A stretch of DNA of 64,000 nt from an uncultured Verrucomicrobiota bacterium (GTDB lineage: Bacteria > Verrucomicrobiota > Kiritimatiellia > PWTM01), in the NCBI GenBank assembly GCA_964610105.1, contig CAZSUU010000003.1, positions 18,417 to 82,416 on the forward strand, given 5' to 3'. Each line of letters starts with the position of its first letter. Position 1 is the first letter of the stretch. The position numbers and the translations under genes were made by a program. This document shows, piece by piece, positions 8,328-61,686 of this stretch. The notes under the pieces are model-generated. The model searched no databases. It worked only from the letters and a program-made list of their open reading frames with translations, and had not been told where the DNA came from.

Positions 8328-9020
8328 TCAACCTTCGGACGGAGGGATGACGGACGCAGTGAACGGACGGAATCGCTTGCGATTCCGCTCCATCTCCTCC
8401 TGCGCCTCGCGGCTGTACCGGGCGTACGGAAGCACCTTCAGCCGTTCGGGCTCGATGGCCTGCCCGGTCATCTCGCAGATGCCGTAGGTCTTGGCCTCGA
8501 TCCGGTGCAGCGCCTCGTCGATCTCGTACAGCACCTCCTGCTCGTTGCTGACGAGCGAGAGCGCGAACTCCCGGTCGAAGTTGTCGGTTCCCTGGTCGGC
8601 CATGTGCATGCCGTAGTTCGACAGATCCCCCGAGGCCTCGCGCTGGGAGTTGTTCAGGTTCTCTCCGGCCAGGAAGGAAATCTCGTCGACGATCTGGTCG
8701 CGAAGATTGAGCAGCAGCTTGCGGTAGGTCTCCAGGTCCCGCGGCGAAAGGTGAGTCGGCCGGGCCTTGGCCGCGGGGGCGGGCGCCGGCGTCTTGCCGG
8801 CCCGGGCCGCCTTCGCGGGCCGCGACGGAGGCGTGGGCGCGGCATGCGCGGCGCGACGGGCGGGCTTCGCGGCCGGCCTCGCCGGTTTGGCCCCGTGTCT
8901 GGCCGACGCCGCCGCTCCCTTCGCACGGGCGGCCCTGGCCGCCGGACGCGGCTTCGTGTGCGCCTTTCCCGCGGGCCTGGCGGTCTTCTTCGCTGCCGTC
9001 TTCTTTCTTGCCACTGCCAT
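8328..9020 (-). CDS. DksA/TraR-family protein with N-terminal Ala/Lys/Pro-rich histone-like tail; zinc-finger cysteines absent
   Basis: C-terminal YGICEMTGQAIEPERLKVLPYARYSREAQ aligns with the DksA C4 region, but only one Cys remains. N-terminal ~100 aa is AKKTARPAGKAHTKPRPAARAARAKG-type low complexity. Confidence 0.6.
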   Translation of the reverse strand: MAVARKKTAAKKTARPAGKAHTKPRPAARAARAKGAAASARHGAKPARPAAKPARRAAHAAPTPPSRPAKAARAGKTPAPAPAAKARPTHLSPRDLETYRKLLLNLRDQIVDEISFLAGENLNNSQREASGDLSNYGMHMADQGTDNFDREFALSLVSNEQEVLYEIDEALHRIEAKTYGICEMTGQAIEPERLKVLPYARYSREAQEEMERNRKRFRPFTASVIPPSEG

Positions 9021-9133
9021 GATACTCCCCTCCGGTTGCGACACCGGACGCCTTTGAGATCGGGATGGTCCCCGCGATCAAAAAAGTGCGGCTATGTAAC
9101 ACACGGGCACCCCCCTGTCAATGGCGGAACCGG

Positions 9134-36639: not shown

Positions 36640-37037
36640 TGAGCCTCTGGAGCCGCATCCGGGAGTGGATCGCCGGCCGCAAGGACAGTGCCGGCCGGAT
36701 CGTGAAGGTGAAGAGCTACGACAAGGGGGAGTGCGAGCGCGCCCTGGAGGAGGCCGAGAAGCGTCTCGGGCTGAAGTACGCCGGCAAGGGCATCACGGTC
36801 ATCGCCCAGAAAGGCGAGAGCATGGGCGGCGGATTCTGGGGCCTCCTGAAAACCAATACCGCCGCCGGAGTCACGGGGAACGCGAAGAGGCAGACCCTCT
36901 ACCTCTACACCGATCCCCAGGGCGCCGAACGCTGGAACGAGCTGCTCCACGAGATGGCGCACGCCGTGCTCTTCAGCCACGGGGAACAGGGTCACCCCCC
37001 CCAATACCGCAAGCTGTTCGAGCACTGGTACGACTGA
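36640..37037 (+). CDS. Small HExxH(x5)H protein, putative mini zinc metallopeptidase (132 aa)
   Basis: Strong SD AAGGAG 8 nt upstream of ATG; motif LLHEMAHAVLFSH; native GC3-rich codon usage. Confidence 0.55.
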
Positions 37038-37225
37038 CCGGAGGCGACCCGACACACGCCTCGGCACAGGGGCCCCAGGAGGGATGCGCGGGTCGGAAGG
37101 CGTCCGGGAGGGCATGATCCCCTGACCCGGCGGAAGCCGATGGTGATCCCTGTGGCGGGCTGATATCGCCGGGAGTGAATATTGGTGGCGCTGCAGTTGG
37201 CCTGCGCGTGCCGGATCGTGTCGGT

Positions 37226-38545
37226 TCATTTGTCGGTGGCCACGGCTCGGCCGAGCGCGGACGGAATCGCAGCCTTGAAGTCGGACGAGAGGACGATGTG
37301 GTTGTCGTAGCGGATGTTCGCATAGCTGAAGACGTAGTCGTCCACGTTGAGCACGGGCAGTTTGGCCATCCACGTATCGCCCTCGCGCACGGCCGGCACG
37401 TCGCGCCAGGCTCGGGCGACGTTGTCGGGCGTCTTCTGCGCTTCATAGATCCGAACCTCGGCAACGCGCTCCGGCGATGCCGGCGTCACGCGCAGCTCCG
37501 GCACGCCGTCCTTGCCGAGGACGAGTTCCGACCCGGGACGCTCCGGCCACGCGATGTCCCTGCCGAGCACGTACTTCTCCAGCCACAGCCTGCAGTCGTC
37601 GCCGAGCTGGTCGGTGTGGTGATGCCCGCGCGCCTGCACGGCGAACGACCACGGCACGCCCGGCTTGAACATCTTGAACGTCGTTTCGCCTCGCTCATGG
37701 CCGCTGTGGTGATCGTTGGAGCCGGTGAGCCACAGGGTGGCGGCCGTGATGTACGGCGCGTGGGCCTGGCACTCGACGGTGGCGAGGTAAAGCGCCTCGC
37801 CAGACGTCACCGGCGGCTCGCGGTACGGCAGGTTGTACAACCAGACCGCCTTGTCGCGGTGATAGGCGATCCAGCCGATGCCGAAATACGCGACGACGGC
37901 CTTCACCCGCGGGTCCATGCCGAGATTCCACATCAGCGTGCCGCCGTAGGAATACCCCTTCGCGCCGATGCGGGCCGGGTCCACCTCCTTCTGGGCGATG
38001 AGGTAGCTGAGCACACGCCGCTGGATGGCGAACCAAAGGTAGTGCGAGGTCTGTCGCGGATCGGTGATGTCCTCTCCGTCCGGCCGTTTCGCGTGGATCG
38101 ACTTCGACTCCATGCGCCCGTGGTCAAGAGAGGCCGGGTACTTCGTGAAATGCGGGCGACCGGCCTTCATTCCGCAGTAGTCGAAGGACATCACGGCCCA
38201 CCCATCCTTCACATAGTCGGCATCGATGCTCGCGGTGCCTATCCAGCCGTGCACGTCGAGAAGCCCCGGCGCCTTCGTCGCGCCCGCCTTCACGCGATAC
38301 CGGCAGAACACGCGGACCTCCTGCCCGAGCACATACGCACTGACGTACGAATCGCGAGCGAATGTCCCGCCCGTGGTCTCCTGCGAAACGATCTCCTCCC
38401 TGAACTCGCCCCTGTCCGGGTCGTAGTCCTTCCAGAGCTCCGGCGGCGTGATCAAACGCCGCGATTCCGTGGCGCGCGATGTGACCGGTGGCGCGAGAAT
38501 CGCCATCAGGGCGACCAGTCCGCTGACGATCCTGACGATCTTCAT
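37226..38545 (-). CDS. Secreted alpha/beta hydrolase (acetyl-xylan-esterase / dienelactone-hydrolase-like)
   Basis: Start MKIVRIVSGLVALMAIL (ATG 38545); nucleophile GYSYGG; C-terminal extra domain. Confidence 0.75.
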   Translation of the reverse strand: MKIVRIVSGLVALMAILAPPVTSRATESRRLITPPELWKDYDPDRGEFREEIVSQETTGGTFARDSYVSAYVLGQEVRVFCRYRVKAGATKAPGLLDVHGWIGTASIDADYVKDGWAVMSFDYCGMKAGRPHFTKYPASLDHGRMESKSIHAKRPDGEDITDPRQTSHYLWFAIQRRVLSYLIAQKEVDPARIGAKGYSYGGTLMWNLGMDPRVKAVVAYFGIGWIAYHRDKAVWLYNLPYREPPVTSGEALYLATVECQAHAPYITAATLWLTGSNDHHSGHERGETTFKMFKPGVPWSFAVQARGHHHTDQLGDDCRLWLEKYVLGRDIAWPERPGSELVLGKDGVPELRVTPASPERVAEVRIYEAQKTPDNVARAWRDVPAVREGDTWMAKLPVLNVDDYVFSYANIRYDNHIVLSSDFKAAIPSALGRAVATDK

Positions 38546-38637
38546 CCCCACCCCACAGGTTGCCCCCCTGCGCCTGTCCCCTGCGCCACCCGTCCGCGTG
38601 CCCCTCGGCCGCCTTCGGCGCATCGGCTAAATCAATA

Positions 38638-38649
38638 ATACGATCGTAT
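38638..38649. promoter_or_regulatory. AT-rich perfect palindrome ATACGATCGTAT (candidate operator), copy 1
   Basis: 12-bp perfect palindrome in the 152-bp divergent region between the esterase (-) and hypothetical (+) genes; same core as 40370-40387; TATACT -10-like hexamer 17 nt downstream of its left half. Confidence 0.45.
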
Positions 38650-38697
38650 CGCGGAACGGGTATACTTCTTTCGTCCGCTGCCCGCGGTGGCTGTGCC

Positions 38698-40167
38698 ATG
38701 GCCGGGTGTTCGATGAAGCCGATGAAGACCCACAGGAACAGGACGGCGTGCAAGGTGGTCCTGGCGGTCGTGCTGTGCATGGCGGTCGTCCTGCTCTTGA
38801 GCGCCATGCTCGCCCGTGTGTGCGTCAAACGCCTCGCCTCTCCGTGGCCGGCGCGGGTGGAAGGTGTGCGGCTCACGCCGTCCCGGCCCGTGCTTTCCAC
38901 GGCCGATCTGTCGCCCACCAACGCCTTCTTTCACCTGATCGCCATGACCAACCCGTTGCCGTCCACGTACCGGCGGATACTGGACGAGGAAGTCTGGATC
39001 TGGACGGCCTCCGGCGCGCAGGGTGCGCCCTATCCCGCCTTTGAAACCTGGCCGGTTTCCAACGTCGTCAACCTCGGCCATTGGACCACCGCTGCGAGCC
39101 TGGACTTCTCCCATGTCCCCAGCGTGCTCAGCATCACCGGAGCGATCCCGAACATCTCGGGCTTCGTGCAGATGGCCAAGTACCAGTCGATCTACGCCAG
39201 CATGCTCGCGACCCGGGGCCGGTGGTCAGAGGCCTGCCGGTCGTGGCAGGAGAACCTCCGGAATGCCTCTCACATCATGCGCGGCGGCGGCCTCATGTCG
39301 CACCTGGCCGGCCTCGCCGCTCTCCAGTGCACGCTGAAGAGCGTCAGGGACGCGGCCCTTCTGGACACCCTGCCCCCCGAGGCGGCGGAGCAGTTGGCCG
39401 CCGCCCTCGAGCGCTCCGAGTCGCATCTGGAGCCGCTGGCTGAGGTGTTCCGCGTCGAACTCCAGGTGCAATGGAGCACCCTCCGCGCCGTGTACGCCGA
39501 TCCCCATGCCTTTGGCGGTCCGGCGACGCAGTCGGTGTCACGCACTGCGTTCCGGGTGCACCGCATGCTCGGCAGCACCGAAGCCCGATCCCGCCGCCAC
39601 TTCGAGGCGTTCTTCTCGCAGATCATCGCCGCCTGCGAACCCCGGCCCGACTGGACGCGCATCCAACGCCTGGAGGCCGCCTTCGAGCATCCACGCCGTT
39701 ACCTGCTGGACGATCCGATCGGCGGAATCGTGGCGGTCCTGACGGTTCCGTCGACGCTCCGCGTGATTCGCAGGCAGATCGCCTGCGAAGCGGCCCTCCG
39801 AGGCACAGCGACGGTGGTGGCGCTTCGCCGATACCAGGTCGACCATCGGGGAACGGTCCCCTCCCGTCTGGCGGACTTGGTGCCCGCCTATCTCCCCGGG
39901 ATCCCTGCCGATCCGTTCACGGACGATGCGCGCCCGCTGCAATACATTCCCGGCAGCGAGGACTGGGTCATCTACAGCGTCGGGCCAAACCGGCGGGACG
40001 AGGGGGGAACGATCGACAGCGAGCTGTCGGGCGAGAAACCGGGGCAATGCGGCGACATGCTGTTCGGGTTGCGGTTCAAGCGCATCGACGTGGCCCACGC
40101 CGAGCATATCCTCGAGGTCTACAGGCGGGAATCCTCTGCCGCCATCGCCGCGCCATCCGCCCCATGA
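38698..40167 (+). CDS. Hypothetical membrane-anchored protein (~490 aa)
   Basis: N-terminal TM VVLAVVLCMAVVLLLSAMLA; start 38698, 38713 or 38722; no recognisable domain. Confidence 0.5.
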   Translation: MAGCSMKPMKTHRNRTACKVVLAVVLCMAVVLLLSAMLARVCVKRLASPWPARVEGVRLTPSRPVLSTADLSPTNAFFHLIAMTNPLPSTYRRILDEEVWIWTASGAQGAPYPAFETWPVSNVVNLGHWTTAASLDFSHVPSVLSITGAIPNISGFVQMAKYQSIYASMLATRGRWSEACRSWQENLRNASHIMRGGGLMSHLAGLAALQCTLKSVRDAALLDTLPPEAAEQLAAALERSESHLEPLAEVFRVELQVQWSTLRAVYADPHAFGGPATQSVSRTAFRVHRMLGSTEARSRRHFEAFFSQIIAACEPRPDWTRIQRLEAAFEHPRRYLLDDPIGGIVAVLTVPSTLRVIRRQIACEAALRGTATVVALRRYQVDHRGTVPSRLADLVPAYLPGIPADPFTDDARPLQYIPGSEDWVIYSVGPNRRDEGGTIDSELSGEKPGQCGDMLFGLRFKRIDVAHAEHILEVYRRESSAAIAAPSAP

Positions 40168-40369
40168 GAGCCCCCGCGCTTCCCGCCGTATTCCGCGTAC
40201 GCCTGCCCTGACGCACGTGCGGCCCCCGCGCGCACCGTGCACGGCCCTGTGCGGGATTTCGCGTGCATGCGCCGTCACTCCGTGCCATCACGGCTGCGGC
40301 GATCGCGGATCGCACGCGGCGATGAGCCGTCGCGCGCATCCGGCTCGTGGGGACGAATATACCGTTTTC

Positions 40370-40387
40370 ATGATACGATCGTATCAT
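40370..40387. promoter_or_regulatory. AT-rich perfect 18-bp palindrome ATGATACGATCGTATCAT (candidate operator), copy 2
   Basis: Perfect palindrome in an AT-rich patch about 107 nt upstream of the 40494 ATG; TATGTT hexamer 17 nt downstream of its ATACGA half. Confidence 0.5.
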
Positions 40388-40493
40388 CGATTTGGTATGT
40401 TCTCCGGCTGCCCGGACCTGGCCATTCCCGCGTCGTTGCGAGGGTGAAACGGCGTGCCTTTTCGCGGGGAAACGATAGACTGCGGCGCAGATC

Positions 40494-41813
40494 ATGAGAC
40501 TCACGGACATGTTCGCAGTCTGTTTCGCACTTGGGTGCCTTTCGTCGTTCGCCTCCGACTACGCCGTCGTGATCGACGCCCGGTCCGCCGCCGACCCCGG
40601 CTGGCGGGCGGTGGCGGAGGTGCTGGAGGCGAAGCACGGCGGGACGCGCGTGACGTACACCGGCGGCGTAGAGCAGGCGGGCGCGGAACTGAAGCGGCTC
40701 CGGCCGCGATTCGCATGCTTCGTGGCGCCGCCCGATCACGTGACGACGGAGTTCGTGGTGGCGGTACATGGCCTGACGCGGGCCCTGGATGACGATCCCT
40801 ACACCGACACGATCTGGGGCATCCTGACCGGTTACGACGCCTCCAATGCCCTGCGCATCGCGCGGCGTCGCGAACCCCTGACCGTCCGCCGCGTGCTCTC
40901 GGGGACCGCCTTCGCCCTGGAGTGCGTCGAAGAGGGGGTGTGGTACGACGAGCTGGAACAGGGCAAGGTCGTGCGCAAGACCAAGGGCGGACGGCCCGAG
41001 GAATCGCGGCACGCAGCCGACAGCACGGAATCCCTCGCGAAGGCGTTGAACGACGACTGGACCGATCTCCTGATCACCTCCGGCCATGCGACCGAGCGCG
41101 ACTGGCAGATCGGCTACCGGTTTCGCGGCGGATCGTTCAACTCCAAGGCCGGCGTGATGACCGCCCGCGATCCGGCCGGACGCACGTGGGAGGTCCATTC
41201 CTCCAACCCCAAGGTCTACCTCCCCGTCGGCAACTGCCTCATGGGCCACATCGACGGCCCGGACGCGATGGCCCTGGCCTGGATGAACTCGGCCGGCGTG
41301 ATGCAGATGATCGGCTACCTGAAGCCGACCTGGTTCGGCTACATGGGCTGGGGCCTGCTCGATTACTTCCTCGAACAGCCGGGCCGCTTCACCCTGGCCG
41401 AGGCGTTCTTCGCCAACCAGCAGGCCTTGATCCACGCCCTCCAGAAGGATCCGCAGTCGCGCGGCCTCCAGTTCGACCGCGACATGGTGGCGTTCTACGG
41501 CGATCCCGCGTGGGAGGCGCGCATGGCGCCGGGCGCATGCCGGTGGGAGCAATCCCTGACGGAAAAGGACGGCGTGTTCACCTTCGAGATGCGCCCGAAG
41601 GCGGGCGCCGACTCCTTCCGCGCCGTGAACGTCAATGGCTCCCAGCGCGGCAGCCGCCCGATCATCCACCTGCTGCCGCGGCGGATTGGACCCGCCACCG
41701 TGATCGAGGGCGCAGAGTTGTCGCCGGTGATCACGGAGAACTTCCTCCTCACCCCCCTCCCGGCCGGGAGTGAGCTCCGGCCGGTCTATCGCGTTGCGTT
41801 CCGGGCCGGCTGA
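40494..41813 (+). CDS. Secreted hypothetical protein (439 aa); possible His/Cys dyad hydrolase
   Basis: Signal peptide MRLTDMFAVCFALGCLSSFA. Hydrophobic strand followed by SGHATE, and VYLPVGNCLMGH, are reminiscent of clan-CD cysteine peptidases (weak). The overlapping minus-strand 522-aa ORF was rejected. Confidence 0.55.
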   Translation: MRLTDMFAVCFALGCLSSFASDYAVVIDARSAADPGWRAVAEVLEAKHGGTRVTYTGGVEQAGAELKRLRPRFACFVAPPDHVTTEFVVAVHGLTRALDDDPYTDTIWGILTGYDASNALRIARRREPLTVRRVLSGTAFALECVEEGVWYDELEQGKVVRKTKGGRPEESRHAADSTESLAKALNDDWTDLLITSGHATERDWQIGYRFRGGSFNSKAGVMTARDPAGRTWEVHSSNPKVYLPVGNCLMGHIDGPDAMALAWMNSAGVMQMIGYLKPTWFGYMGWGLLDYFLEQPGRFTLAEAFFANQQALIHALQKDPQSRGLQFDRDMVAFYGDPAWEARMAPGACRWEQSLTEKDGVFTFEMRPKAGADSFRAVNVNGSQRGSRPIIHLLPRRIGPATVIEGAELSPVITENFLLTPLPAGSELRPVYRVAFRAG

Positions 41814-41875
41814 ACGCGCCGGATCCGATGAGGACAGATCCATCCGGTCCCTCCCTCCGGTCGCCAACGGGAGGC

Positions 41876-41893
41876 GCGGGCAGGATTGCCCGC
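41876..41893 (+). repeat. 3' hairpin element copy 2 (GCGGGC-AGGATT-GCCCGC)
   Basis: Identical core to 23306-23323; 63 nt downstream of the 40494-41813 gene, convergent with pgi. Confidence 0.4.
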
Positions 41894-41981
41894 CGAGAAG
41901 CGCGCGGGTCACCACTCGTCTCCCATGCGATGGCACCGCCCCTCGTGGCGGGCCGGACCATGCGACACCGATGACGAGGCG

Positions 41982-43604
41982 TCACCGCAACCGCCGGAAC
42001 CGTTCGATCAGCCGGTTGGTGGAGGCATCGTGGGAGGGCGCCGGATCCGCCGCGGACTGCAGCTCCGGCAGGATCTTCTTCGCCAGGACCTTGCCCAGTT
42101 CGACACCCCACTGGTCGAAGGAGAAGATGTTCCACACGATGCCCTGCGTGAAGATCTTGTGCTCGTACAGGGCGATCAACTGGCCGAGGCTGGAGGGGGT
42201 CAGCTCGCGCGCCAGCAGCGTATTGGTGGGCCGGTTGCCTTCGAACGTGCGGTGGGGCACCCGTTCCGGGGGGGTCCCCTCCGCGGCCACTTCCGCCGCC
42301 GTCCTGCCGAAGGCCAGGGCCTCCGTCTGGGCGAAGAAATTGGCCATGAGCTTCGCGTGGTGGTCCCCGATGGGGTTGTGCGACCGGGCGAAACCGATGA
42401 AGTCGGCGGGGACCAGTTTCGTACCCTGGTGCAGGAGCTGGTAAAACGCGTGCTGGCCGTTCGTGCCGGGCTCGCCCCAGATCACCGGCCCCGTCTCGTG
42501 CCGCACGCGCCGGCCGTTTCGATCGACGGATTTCCCGTTGCTCTCCATATCGCCCTGCTGGAAGTAGGCGGGGAAGCGTGCGAGGTACTGGTCGTACGGC
42601 AGGATGGCGTGGGACTGGGCGCCCAGGAAGTTGTTGTACCAGACGCCGAGCATCGCGAGGATCACGGGCATGTTCTGCTCGAACGGCGCCTCGGCGAAAT
42701 GCCGGTCCATCCAGTGGAAGCCGTCGAGCATCGCGCGGAACTGATCGGGGCCGATGGAGATCATCAGCGGCAGCCCGATGGCGGAGCCCAGGGAGTAGCG
42801 CCCGCCCACCCAGTTCCAGAAGCCGAACATGTTGGCCGGGTCGATCCCGAACTCCGCAACGCGCTCCCTGTTCGTCGAGACGGCGACGAAGTGCTTCGCG
42901 ACCGCCGCCTGATCCTTGAGGGCGGCGAGGCTCCAGGCCCGCGCGCTCACGGCATTGGTCATCGTCTCCTCGGTCGTGAAGGTCTTGGAGGCGATGACGA
43001 ACAGGGTCTCCGCGGGATCCAGATCCCGGAGGGTCTCGGCGAGGTGCGTGCCGTCGATGTTCGACACGAACCGCACCTGGATCGAACGCTCGCTGAAGGG
43101 CCGCAGCGCGAGGCAGGCCATGGCGGGACCGAGATCCGAACCGCCGATGCCGATGTTGACCACATTCCGGATCCGCCGGCCGCTGTGTCCCTTCCATTCG
43201 CCCGAGCGGATACGGTCGGAGAAGTCGGCCATGCGGTCGAGCACCTCGTGCACGCCCGGCACCACATCGGCGCCGTCGACGATGATGGAGTGTCCGCGCG
43301 GCGTACGGAGCGCGACGTGGAGAACGGCGCGGTTCTCGGTCCGGTTGATCTTGTCCCCGCGGAACATCGCGTCGCGGGCCTCCGCCACGCCCGCCCGGCG
43401 CGCCAGGTCGAACAGCAAGCGCAGGGTCCGATCGGTCACGCGGTTCTTCGAGTAGTCGAGATACCAGTCGCCCGCCTCCAGCGCCATGCGTTCGGCCCGG
43501 GCCGGATCGCCGCGAAAGAGGTCGCGCAGGTGAACGCGGCGCATCCTGGCCGCATGGCGTTTCAGCGGGGCAAAGGCATCGGACACCGAATACTCATCTG
43601 TCAT
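41982..43604 (-). CDS. pgi: Glucose-6-phosphate isomerase
   Basis: 540 aa, full-length PGI; SIS domains, [10 protein letters not shown] motif. Confidence 0.95.
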
Positions 43605-46012: not shown

Positions 46013-46200
46013 AATGAGTCAAAGAGCGGCGTGGAATGCGGCTTCCCCTGTTGTTCCTTGCCTCGCCGTTCCTCTCGTACTCTGTCCTCATGACGCGCAC
46101 TCTGCGGGGTGTTCTACACCGTGTCAACTCTTCTTTTGATAACTTTTTTTAGACTTTCTTTTGACGCCGTGGTAGGCTCGCTCCGAAGGGGAAAACGGGG

Positions 46201-50736: not shown

Positions 50737-52464
50737 TCATGTCGAGCCGGTCGGCTTTTCCATTTTGTGGCGCGGCTTCTCGATGATCATGTCCTCGATC
50801 GCCCGGCCCGCGGGGATCATCGGGAACACGTTGTCGGTCTTCTCCACCTCGCAATTGACCACCGCGGGGCCGTCATGGTAGTCGAGGGCCTTCTGCAGCA
50901 CCCGTCGCACGTCGCCGGAGCGCCGGATATGGAAGCCCTTGACGCCCTGGAAGGCCTCGGCGAGCTTCGCGAAGTCGGGATTGCCCTCCAGATCCACGCC
51001 CGACTTGCGGTCGTCGTAGAACAGCTCCTGCCACTGGCGCACCATGCCGAGGTAATGGTTGTTGAGGATGATGACCTTGATCGGCAGCTTGTGCAGCGCC
51101 GCGGTCGCCAGCTCATAGCTGGTCATCTGGAATCCGCCGTCGCCGACGAACGCCACCACGAGGTCATCCGGCCGCCCGAACTTGGCGCCGATCGCCGCCG
51201 GCATGCCGTATCCCATGGTCCCCGCCCCGCCGGAGGTGAGGAAGCTGTTCGGACGGTCGCTGAGGTAGAACTGGGCCGCCCACATCTGGTGCTGGCCGAC
51301 ATCGGTCGTCACGAGCGCCTGGCCACCGGTCATCCGGTACAGCTCGCGGATGACGTGCTGCATCTTCAGCCCGCCCCGCCGGGCGCAGCGCAGGGGGTAT
51401 TTCCGTTTGTAGCCGTCCAGACGCGCCAGCCAGTCGTCCGTGTTCAGCCGCCCGACGTGCGGAAGCAGCTCCCGCAGCACCGTCTTGGCGTCGCCGACGC
51501 AGTAGTGGTGGCACCGGATCATCTTGCCCATCTCGGCCGGGTCGACATCGATGTGAATCCGCACCGCGTCCCTGCAGAACCGCGCCGGCTGCCCCACGAT
51601 CCGGTCGTCGAACCGGGAGCCGATGGACATGATCAGGTCGCACTCCACCACCGCCTTGTTCGCGTACGCCGTCCCGTGCATGCCCAGCCAGCCCAGCGAC
51701 AGCGGATGCGTCTCGGGGAATACCCCCTTGCCGAGGAGCGTGGTCGTCACCGGCGCCCGGAGCTTCTCGGCCAGGGCCCGCACCTCAGCCGACGCCCCCG
51801 CGATCATCGCGCCATGCCCGGCCAGGAGGACGGGCCGGCTGGCCTTGTTCAGCGCCTCGGCGATGCGGAGGATCGACTCCCTGTTCACGTTCGCCGGATC
51901 GAAGTTGTAGCCCGGCAGGTCCATCTCGGCGTGCAGGTCCGCCGTGCAGGGACCCGCCGACACGTCCTTGGGCACGTCGATCAGCACCGGCCCCGGCCGC
52001 CCGGTATTGCTGATGTGAAAGGCCTCCCGCACCACGCGCGGGATGTCGTTCGAGTCCTTCACCAGGTAGCTGTGCTTCACCACCGGCATCGTGATGCCGA
52101 AGATGTCCGCCTCCTGGAACGCGTCCTTGCCGATCATCGGCCGGATCGACTGACCGGTGATCACCACGATCGGCACGGAATCCATGTGCGCCGTCATGAT
52201 CCCCGTCAGCGTGTTCGTCGCCCCCGGCCCGCTCGTCACCACCACCACCCCCGGCTGGCCGGTCGCACGCGCATAACCGTCCGCCGCGTGCGTGGCGCCC
52301 TGCTCGTGACGCACCAGGATCAGCTTGATCTTGGTGCGGGTGGTCACCAGGGCGTCAAAAATGGGTATCGCCGCACCCCCGGAATACCCGAAGATGTACT
52401 CCACGCCCTCATTCTCCAGGCACCGTATCAGCGCCTGTCCGCCATCCATCGTCGCCTGAGCCAT
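50737..52464 (-). CDS. ilvB: Acetolactate synthase large subunit
   Basis: TPP enzyme. Start at MAQATMDGGQALIRCLENEGVEYIFGYSGG (ATG 52464), because the longer ORF overlaps the predicted promoter. Confidence 0.9.
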   Translation of the reverse strand: MAQATMDGGQALIRCLENEGVEYIFGYSGGAAIPIFDALVTTRTKIKLILVRHEQGATHAADGYARATGQPGVVVVTSGPGATNTLTGIMTAHMDSVPIVVITGQSIRPMIGKDAFQEADIFGITMPVVKHSYLVKDSNDIPRVVREAFHISNTGRPGPVLIDVPKDVSAGPCTADLHAEMDLPGYNFDPANVNRESILRIAEALNKASRPVLLAGHGAMIAGASAEVRALAEKLRAPVTTTLLGKGVFPETHPLSLGWLGMHGTAYANKAVVECDLIMSIGSRFDDRIVGQPARFCRDAVRIHIDVDPAEMGKMIRCHHYCVGDAKTVLRELLPHVGRLNTDDWLARLDGYKRKYPLRCARRGGLKMQHVIRELYRMTGGQALVTTDVGQHQMWAAQFYLSDRPNSFLTSGGAGTMGYGMPAAIGAKFGRPDDLVVAFVGDGGFQMTSYELATAALHKLPIKVIILNNHYLGMVRQWQELFYDDRKSGVDLEGNPDFAKLAEAFQGVKGFHIRRSGDVRRVLQKALDYHDGPAVVNCEVEKTDNVFPMIPAGRAIEDMIIEKPRHKMEKPTGST

Positions 52465-52486
52465 AGATCCCTCTGTTTTGAGGGCC

Positions 52487-52514
52487 AATTTAGCGCCAAC
52501 CAGGATTGTGTCAA
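52487..52514 (-). promoter_or_regulatory. Predicted sigma70 promoter of ilvBH (TTGACA-16-TAAATT) with AT-rich upstream region
   Basis: Minus strand reads tttttcaTTGACAcaatcctggttggcgcTAAATTggccctcaaaacagagggatctATG. Confidence 0.4.
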
Positions 52515-53032
52515 TGAAAAACAATGGATTATTTGTCCTGTTTCGACATGATATGAGATCGTGCATTCGATATCCGCATTTCTGCATGCCCATTTTGCCT
52601 CCATTCTTCATCCATGCCCTGTATTCCTCGTTCTGGAGGCTCGTTTTTGCAGGGGTTGACGATAGGGGCAAACGGACCGCGAGGCCGCGGCCCTCCTGCT
52701 GGCGGTTTGCGTGCTGGGAGGGATGCCCTTTCCGGTGTCCGCTCCTCCTCCATTCGGGTTCAGCGGCAGCATCATCTGCGTGGTTGCGTCCCGGACGAGG
52801 CGAGATGGAACCGGAAAAAGCGACCGGCGGGACTTCCGGAATTCACTGTCAGCGCAGTATCTGAGTCCCGCCGGCACTACAACCCTACATCGGCCTCGCG
52901 TCACCGTCAAGCGGCGGGGGACATCAAATATGCCCGCGATCCTTGCCGTGGATGGGCAAACTGAAAGCGCCCCCGGCGGAGGCGGGGGGGGGCGCGTTCT
53001 GTTCGAGTGGAATCGGGTCGCGGTTCGCCGCC

Positions 53033-61550: not shown

Positions 61551-61686
61551 CGGCGGCGGGCACGGGCGCACGGACGGGTGCGCGCGGGCCCGTCCGGGAC
61601 GGCGGCCGCCCGGAGGTCGCCGAGGAGTCGGAGCGTGGTTTGTCCGGGTTTGTGTTTGATCGTATACTTGGTACGGAGAGCGCGCC

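Follow-up and report, generated by a model that had tools for sequence, protein, structure and literature searches.

A perfect 18-bp palindrome, ATGATACGATCGTATCAT, lies upstream of a gene at 40494 that encodes a predicted secreted peptidase, and its 12-bp core, ATACGATCGTAT, recurs as an exact copy upstream of the neighbouring gene at 38698, in both places in the same register to a -10-like hexamer. The element is real, and chance is a very improbable explanation for it. That it has some regulatory role through the binding of a protein (a repressor or an activator) is predicted with good confidence. More specifically, and with a confidence only somewhat better than even, we read the palindrome as an ordinary operator of a homodimeric regulator, which is predicted to repress two adjacent promoters.

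Genomic context

The window, that is, the whole stretch of DNA that was analysed, spans 64 kb with a GC content of 67.7%. Its gene content, together with the taxonomy of the closest homologues (Verrucomicrobiota, Kiritimatiellia, Lentisphaerae and Planctomycetota), places the organism in the PVC group. The features of the locus are the following:

37226-38545, minus strand: secreted alpha/beta hydrolase of the Peptidase_S9/DLH type (esterase), by Pfam, with a signal-peptide-like N-terminus
38635-38640, minus strand: possible -10-like hexamer TATTAT, predicted from sequence, overlapping the left edge of site 1 and directed toward the esterase gene
38638-38649, no strand: site 1, a 12-bp perfect palindrome, ATACGATCGTAT, between the divergently oriented genes
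38661-38666, plus strand: -10-like hexamer TATACT, 11 nt after the site 1 core
38698-40167, plus strand: membrane-anchored, mostly helical, near-orphan protein with only weak homologues
40370-40387, no strand: site 2, an 18-bp perfect palindrome, ATGATACGATCGTATCAT, whose core ATACGATCGTAT occupies 40373-40384 and whose dyad centre is GATC
40396-40401, plus strand: -10-like hexamer TATGTT, preceded by TGG (extended -10-like TGn), with a putative promoter role
40445-40490, plus strand: conserved proximal leader block TGAAACGGCGTGCCTTTTCGCGGGGAAACGATAGACTGCGGCGCAG, with a second -10-like hexamer, TAGACT, at 40476-40481
40494-41813, plus strand: predicted secreted gingipain-like (clan CD) peptidase homologue with a signal-like N-terminus (the public gene call starts at 40509)
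41982-43604, minus strand: phosphoglucose isomerase, by Pfam

The ATG of the esterase gene is located 93 nt from site 1. The true start of the 38698 protein is probably the ATG at 38722, since the N-terminus aligns with its relatives from there. The wider window encodes V/A-type ATP synthase subunits, a class I aminoacyl-tRNA synthetase, ExbB/ExbD, TPR proteins, GH106 and DUF6259 proteins, acetolactate synthase, type II/IV secretion ATPases and N-methyl pseudopilins. Pfam scans of its ~50 ORFs revealed no HTH or other regulator domain, in agreement with the first-pass annotation, which had seen no obvious regulator gene in the window; the sole regulator-related match is a DksA/TraR zinc finger (8328-9077).

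The palindrome and its recurrence

The first-pass annotation had described a perfect palindrome of 18 bp in an AT-rich patch some 107 nt upstream of the 40494 ATG, with a 12-bp core recurring as a perfect palindrome at 38638-38649, and each part of this description proved exact. The 18-mer lies within the patch at 40351-40401, its end is 107 nt before the ATG, and it is the longest perfect palindrome across the 64-kb window. The core is present in exactly two copies (40373-40384 and 38638-38649), both of them intergenic.

These occurrences were compared with chance expectations computed from Markov models (order 0 to 2) of the window itself. The expected number of copies of the 18-mer in the window is 3e-8 to 4e-7 across the three orders; for the 12-mer it is 4e-4 under the order-0 and order-1 models and 1e-3 under order 2. 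No variants of the core with one or two mismatches were found throughout the 64 kb, and those with three mismatches are at chance level (11 observed vs 9.3 expected). Base composition likewise sets the two sites apart: among the 45 maximal perfect palindromes of at least 12 bp in the window, only these two have a GC content of 33%, the remaining 43 ranging from 50 to 100%. An enrichment of isolated half-sites was considered and rejected, as the 12 occurrences of TCGTAT in the window are near the number that we estimate from base composition, and an extra GATCGTAT at 61658 belongs to the -10 region of a pseudopilin promoter. Overall, the element has the form of a dyad-symmetric operator, typically an inverted repeat of ~12-20 bp with near-exact symmetry (here perfect palindromes of 18 and 12 bp), and it recurs above chance at more than one promoter-like position, in two exact copies with the same register to TATRYT.

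One alternative would place the function of the element in a single strand or in its methylation. It could fold into a hairpin, in RNA or DNA, that serves behind the 38698 gene as a terminator or as a signal for processing or stability, or it could be a GATC/CGATCG methylation target with no regulator involved. Site 2 does lie ~200 nt after the 38698 stop and can form a 7-bp stem, and GATC occupies the dyad centre. However, the predicted hairpins (-3.5 kcal/mol at site 2, -2 kcal/mol at site 1) are no better than those of shuffled sequence, there is no T-run, a terminator scan was empty at both sites, and no Rfam match was obtained in 38300-40700 at E<=1. Moreover, site 1 lies upstream of both of its flanking genes, and GATC, with 539 sites in the window, is too abundant for a rare methylation target. 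Nor is the fold of the leader at 40402-40520 (119 nt, of which the last 27 belong to the gene) of unusual stability (z = 0.48). We give this alternative very little credence. Since the hairpin is weak and neither an Rfam match nor a terminator was found, recognition of the palindrome as duplex DNA is the simplest reading.

Position relative to predicted promoters

The register of the palindrome to the downstream hexamers is identical at both sites. At site 2 the last base of the ATACGA half-site is 40378 and the first base of TATGTT is 40396; at site 1 the corresponding positions are 38643 and 38661 (TATACT), leaving 17 nt in between in each case, exactly as the first-pass annotation had reported; counted from the end of the core, the gap is 11 nt at both sites. 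When the two regions (38590-38760 and 40325-40530) were aligned, their flanks proved unalignable, and what they have in common is the core of 12 bp, the C that follows it and the position of TATRYT: each copy consists of the core, the C, ten unrelated bases and then TATGTT or TATACT. A GC-rich GCTGCCCG is also found downstream at both sites, at slightly unequal offsets, and site 1 has no counterpart of the proximal leader block of site 2. Since the shared part is limited to the core, the C and the hexamer position and the flanks are unrelated, the alignment characterizes it as a discrete element in fixed register and not as a recently duplicated promoter.

A scan of 37000-42200 for the full sigma-70 consensus promoter returned no match. 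A readable sigma-70-type promoter, TTGTCC-N17-TATACT, is found elsewhere in the window, at 61634-61667, before a pseudopilin gene. The hexamers TATGTT and TATACT next to the palindromes are credible as -10 elements because TATACT is the -10 of this pseudopilin promoter. With these hexamers as -10 elements and a start ~7 nt after the hexamer, the dyad centre would fall near -30, and the core would overlie the -35 position together with the upstream portion of the spacer.

The same protein-binding site could instead serve an activator, a dimer that recruits RNA polymerase from over the -35 position or from upstream of a proximal TAGACT promoter. A TTGACA-like -35 is absent at both sites and the left, ATACGA half-site occupies the -35 position with a 17-nt spacing, as would suit a promoter in need of activation; furthermore, the strongly conserved proximal TAGACT block at site 2 could be the true promoter, with the palindrome as an upstream site. 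If that block is indeed a real promoter, site 2 would be near -100, a position that suits an upstream activator or an auxiliary site better than a blocking repressor. On the other hand, class II and class I activator sites are typically centred at -41.5 and -61.5, and with TATGTT and TATACT as the -10 elements the dyad centre would be near -30. A MerR-type mechanism needs a 19-20 bp spacer and is ruled out by the 17-nt spacing, and site 1 has no equivalent of the proximal block. A centre near -30 and the 17-nt geometry speak for occlusion of the polymerase. We regard activation as unlikely, though it deserves to be weighed ahead of the other alternatives discussed here. The classic operator geometry invoked in the first-pass annotation is borne out insofar as a non-random element stands in the same register at two adjacent candidate promoters; its choice between repressor and activator is one that sequence cannot separate.

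Conservation in closely related genomes

Footprinting was confined to three close lineages, since the next-best homologues of the 40494 protein beyond its own 90%-identity cluster are 63-64% identical and the 38698 protein is a near-orphan. Within the same strain, Logan contigs of many sequencing runs keep both sites unchanged. Site 2 is identical in a strain of ~97% identity (L088) and site 1 in a strain of 97-98% identity (L154). The 326-nt intergenic region before the 40494 gene differs between the window and L088 at 14 positions, and the longest difference-free run (40353-40401) comprises the AT patch, the palindrome and the -10-like hexamer; this coincidence is only suggestive, as a 49-nt run is not unusual with 14 differences in 326 nt.

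In a lineage of 93-95% identity, represented by two independent assemblies (L086 and L087), the site reads ATGACGCGATCGTATCAT, followed by 11 nt and CATGTT. It matches site 2 at 16 of 18 positions; both changes fall in the left half (2 of its 9 positions), and the right half and the centre are intact. These genomes keep GCGATCGTATCATC and its spacing to CATGTT, and their distal leader has diverged to ~55% identity. The proximal block at 40445-40490 is identical to L086 at 44 of 46 positions, compared with only ~55% identity over the stretch between TATGTT and the block.

The gene arrangement in these two assemblies is a different one. The module stands upstream of a truncated paralogue of the 38698 gene, which is followed by the peptidase gene with overlapping reading frames; the paralogue has a similar N-terminus, and its C-terminal part is 45% identical. 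In the genomes compared, the palindrome accordingly accompanies both 38698-type genes and the peptidase gene, in two different arrangements. The presence of a single module before a unit of the 38698 paralogue and the peptidase gene in L086 argues that the two gene families are functionally linked, as judged from gene order. A further relative of ~95% identity, L153, which comes from the same sample, has a true 38698 orthologue (95% nucleotide identity). There, unrelated sequence lacking a palindrome takes the place of 38575-38735, and the esterase gene is largely deleted. Site 1 is therefore not indispensable.

These comparisons bear on the possibility that the two sites are a relic of an old promoter duplication that took place along with that of a 38698-type gene, the 13 nt and their spacing being a leftover or part of the core promoter with no dedicated regulator. 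Sites 1 and 2 do precede paralogous genes (counting the L086 arrangement), site 1 is dispensable in L153, and neither a regulator in the window nor further sites were found. Against this, the paralogues are only 45% identical over the aligned region and the promoter flanks no longer align, and a neutral stretch of 13 nt would not remain identical or perfectly palindromic over such divergence; nor is perfect dyad symmetry a property of core promoters. The identity and symmetry of these 13 nt despite 45% identity of the paralogues argue for selection on the element, and we consider a mere relic improbable.

The locus has been rearranged in the relatives: L086 carries IS remnants, L154 has an insertion of 454 bp and L153 shows deletions. 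Together with the fact that identical 12-bp palindromes bracket exactly one near-orphan gene (38698), this could point to a pair of recombination sites flanking a one-gene cassette, an orientation-free palindrome permitting its inversion or excision. However, no recombinase or integrase domain is encoded in the window, and a 3423-nt Logan contig from at least 20 samples runs unbroken through site 1 in the reference arrangement. No variant arrangement with a junction at the core was found, and 12 bp is short for known site-specific recombinases. A recombination role is in our view highly improbable.

Conservation at 93-98% identity counts for little, the relatives being too close. The first-pass annotation had looked to orthologous promoters for the motif. 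It is kept in the 97-98% strains and, at 16 of 18 positions of site 2, in the 93-95% lineage, and is absent at site 1 in L153 and from the distant orthologues described below.

Distant homologues and sequence collections

Among 80 orthologous 40494 loci from species-representative PVC genomes, the core was found upstream of the gene in none, and none has an AT-rich perfect palindrome within 300 nt upstream of it. The sole match to the core in 1.15 Mb of these orthologous loci is at an unrelated position in one of them (L029). The closest non-conspecific homologues of the 40494 gene (63-64% identity) lie within operons and have no promoter of their own; these are polysaccharide-utilisation operons with GH88, KduI, an SDR and a sulfatase. 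The 38698 protein was not found beside 40494 homologues outside the source lineage. The esterase has more than 500 homologues, which in the relatives reside in sulfatase- and glycosidase-rich loci, and its 77%-identical homologues, whose genes are inside sulfatase/glycosidase operons, are not accompanied by the palindrome.

A metagenome collection, from which the source organism is absent, was scanned with ATACGATCGTATC-N10-TATNNT. This gave 42 matches, all on unrelated contigs of mostly low GC content, roughly the number expected by chance; in two of the seven loci with ORFs that were inspected (L134 and L117) the match falls within an ORF. A scan of viral contigs gave 10 matches, also at chance level. 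In the papers searched, ATACGATCGTAT did not occur and TACGATCGTA occurred only in unrelated primer sequences. The literature on BlaI-type motifs yielded nothing usable.

Predicted products of the flanking genes

A total of 2271 homologues of the 40494 protein were found at E<=1e-50, and the protein has no sequence match in Pfam, NCBIfam or PDB, Pfam C25 included. Its AlphaFold2 model, built from 35 homologues, has a mean pLDDT of 90.2. In a Foldseek search of this model against PDB, the only significant matches were to gingipain R RgpB (1cvr and 4ief, E 1e-8 to 1e-7), with a probability of 1.0 and a full-length alignment, at a TM-score of just 0.47 and ~10% sequence identity; separase, also of clan CD, was a weak next match. 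Like gingipain R (RgpB, family C25, clan CD), the modelled fold spans two alpha/beta subdomains and a C-terminal beta domain, and the protein has a signal-like N-terminus. The residues S196-G197-H198 and N247-C248 are invariant in the 35 homologues, which puts His198 and Cys248 in G-H and N-C motifs, as expected for the His/Cys dyad of clan CD, and makes them a putative catalytic pair. The differences from gingipain R are the low sequence identity, the TM-score and the failure of sequence-based searches to detect the relationship. On the strength of the model, the product is predicted to be a secreted, gingipain-like peptidase homologue, and the PVC family to which it belongs is large and unannotated. 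Given the fold match, gingipain-like (clan CD) peptidase homologue is a better label than the "secreted hypothetical" of the first-pass annotation.

The AlphaFold2 model of the 38698 product (pLDDT 65) begins with an N-terminal transmembrane helix, followed by helical repeats and, at the C-terminus, a helix-plus-sheet unit; it returned no significant fold match. A conserved C-terminal motif in this protein, DPF...YSVGP..D.GG, presumably resembles the C-terminus of GspG-type pseudopilins.

Proposed mechanism

In the mechanism that we favour, the palindrome would act as an operator in duplex DNA, recognized by a homodimeric regulator whose gene lies outside the window. A protein bound at the core would most simply block RNA polymerase, and repression is therefore the preferred mechanism. 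Two adjacent units, the 38698 membrane gene and the 40494 peptidase gene, would be repressed together and relieved by a signal. The divergent esterase gene would be, by conjecture, a possible third target. The binding of a protein, the assignment of the promoters, the sign of regulation and the co-regulation of the two units are thus all predictions from the arrangement of the locus.

A more elaborate version, which we consider a long shot, would make the GATC-centred palindrome the operator of an undescribed regulator specific to the PVC lineage. Such a regulator would control a lineage-specific export module composed of the gingipain-like peptidase, its membrane-anchored helical partner and perhaps the secreted esterase, and methylation of the central GATC might affect its binding, giving rise to heterogeneous (phase-variable) expression.

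Significance

Transcriptional regulation in uncultured PVC bacteria (Verrucomicrobiota, Kiritimatiellia, Lentisphaerae and Planctomycetota) is almost uncharted. A clean 18-bp candidate operator could serve directly as bait in a DNA pull-down or DAP-seq experiment aimed at one regulator and its targets, with ATGATAGCATGCTATCAT as the half-site mutant; runs from sewage or bioreactor samples that carry the locus include ERR4519280, ERR4524289 and ERR14964770. Among the candidate targets is the predicted secreted gingipain-like peptidase, which belongs to a very large family that lacks annotation, and the timing of its expression would help to assign a role to this family. In other respects the motif is a cis-regulatory one of standard type, from a lineage that has been little studied, and it introduces no new principle.

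Comparison with known operators

The palindrome was compared with consensus sequences of known operators, the comparisons being read from the sequence. None of the consensus sequences compared matches it, and classic CRP or FNR sites and known LexA boxes were rejected on this ground. Several further families were set aside on geometry. The operator of the LacI/GalR family is an even palindrome with a central CG step, and the dyad centre here is A|T within GATC. A MerR-type promoter is incompatible with a dyad centre 17.5 nt upstream of the -10 start and a half-site at the -35 position with a 17-nt spacing.

The Fur/Zur/PerR box is a 7-1-7 inverted repeat, TGATAATnATTATCA, of odd length with a central unpaired base. 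The palindrome resembles it in its outer half-site TGATA and in its AT-rich location in a promoter region, and a Fur-type repressor overlaps the -35/-10 region. It differs in being of even length, its centre falling between the A and T of a central CGATCG, and in having no metal-homeostasis genes on its flanks; with no central base and a half-site TGATACG that matches at 5 of 7 positions, this box was rejected.

The CopY/BlaI/MecI box has the consensus TACAnnTGTA, and BlaI/BlaR-like pairs are common in PVC bacteria. The inner 10 bp of the palindrome, TACGATCGTA, have the same TAC-N4-GTA layout and agree at 8 of 10 positions, a likeness to be taken as a lead only. Two symmetric mismatches fall at the defining inner positions, with G/C instead of A/T. 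Given these differences and the lack of a Penicillinase_R or M56 domain in the window, this box was also rejected.

The element is assigned to the generic class of dyad-symmetric operators of dimeric regulators, and no named regulon is claimed. Within this class, the TetR/QacR-type operators that lie over the core promoter of one or two divergent genes (tetO and QacR IR1, the latter with a central CGATCGATCG) offer the closest parallel in layout. The sequence of the palindrome matches none of the known operators considered and, unlike in those systems, there is no TetR-family or other regulator gene adjacent to the sites; a local repressor system of the TetR type was rejected, as the flanking S9/DLH hydrolase, the membrane helical protein and the gingipain-like peptidase all have no HTH. 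The central CGATCG is reminiscent of the IR1 core, again as a lead only. In both cases, on the other hand, a (near-)perfect intergenic dyad of 12-18 bp overlaps the (here predicted) -35/spacer region, with one copy in a divergent region, and repression by steric occlusion, which operates at TetR/QacR-type operators, would be the expected consequence here too.

A conserved block in the proximal leader

The leader between the perfect 18-bp palindrome and the gingipain-like peptidase gene at 40494 is not uniformly conserved between the window and contig L086, a representative of the lineage with 93-95% identity. The distal leader is only ~55% identical, whereas 44 of 46 positions agree in a proximal block:

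40445-40490 in the window, 1865-1910 in L086: 46-nt block, just 5' of the start codon

In L086 this block stands ahead of another gene, a paralogue of the membrane protein gene at 38698. It contains a -10-like TAGACT as well as a small hairpin (CTGCG-G-CGCAG), and may serve as a second promoter or as an element of translation. The block had no match in Rfam, and the folding energy around it was not unusual.

Other promoters and AT-rich patches of the window

Three further intergenic features were noted:

61634-61667: clear sigma-70-type promoter, TTGTCC-N17-TATACT, ~20 nt ahead of the ATG (61687) of the pseudopilin gene
46110-46176: long AT-rich intergenic patch 5' of a bioD-like gene, with TTGATA, TAGACT and TTGACG elements
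52463-52582: long AT-rich intergenic patch 5' of the acetolactate synthase large subunit gene, containing ATGATATGAGATCGTGCAT

The first of these is a useful local reference for the appearance of promoters in this organism; the presence of GATCGTAT there is a coincidence with its -10. The likeness of ATGATATGAGATCGTGCAT to the palindrome is only loose.

Contig ends at the palindrome

Logan contigs L081-L084 and L089-L092 have ends at window positions 40353-40391. In many independent samples one contig stops at 40383 and its successor begins at 40361, so that the 37-nt segment 40354-40390, palindrome included, is flanked on either side by a branch point of the graph. These ends are not exactly reproduced by the strain SNPs already known (40352 and 40402); an additional co-occurring variant that differs near 40353 and near 40391 would reproduce them. 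The palindrome itself is common to all variants.

Rearranged relatives of the locus

In the 93-95% lineage (L086, 1920-2301, and L087) the peptidase gene is separated from the palindrome module by the paralogue of the 38698 gene, which is truncated and frameshifted; IS/transposase remnants lie directly upstream. In L153, a contig of the ~95% lineage from a sample shared with the former, the 38698 orthologue is intact and is followed by the same IS-like sequence; the esterase gene is mostly deleted. A further rearrangement was found in a strain of 97-98% identity (L154, 589-1042), where an insertion of ~454 bp between window positions 38729 and 38734 interrupts the 38698 gene a few codons past its start and divides it into two called ORFs.

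Products of the flanking genes

The esterase (37226-38545) is a protein of 439 aa; among its close homologues (70-80% identity) most are of ~575 aa or ~725 aa and a minority of ~440 aa. The product of the 38698-40167 gene is a near-orphan for which a Pfam search returned nothing and a structural model (pLDDT 65) gave no fold match. It shares with its weak homologues an invariant C-terminal motif, P..DPF...YSVGP..D.GG (residues ~400-440), which we take to resemble the C-terminus of GspG-type pseudopilins.

The 40494-41813 product, annotated as hypothetical, is a member of a PVC protein family, more than 2000 strong, for which neither Pfam nor NCBIfam has a model and some members of which carry the JGI label "zinc protease". 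Homologues of its gene in relatives are placed within polysaccharide or sulfatase loci. Residues His198 and Cys248 are invariant in 35 homologues, and structure modeling confidently predicts a gingipain R-like fold (clan CD, C25-like).
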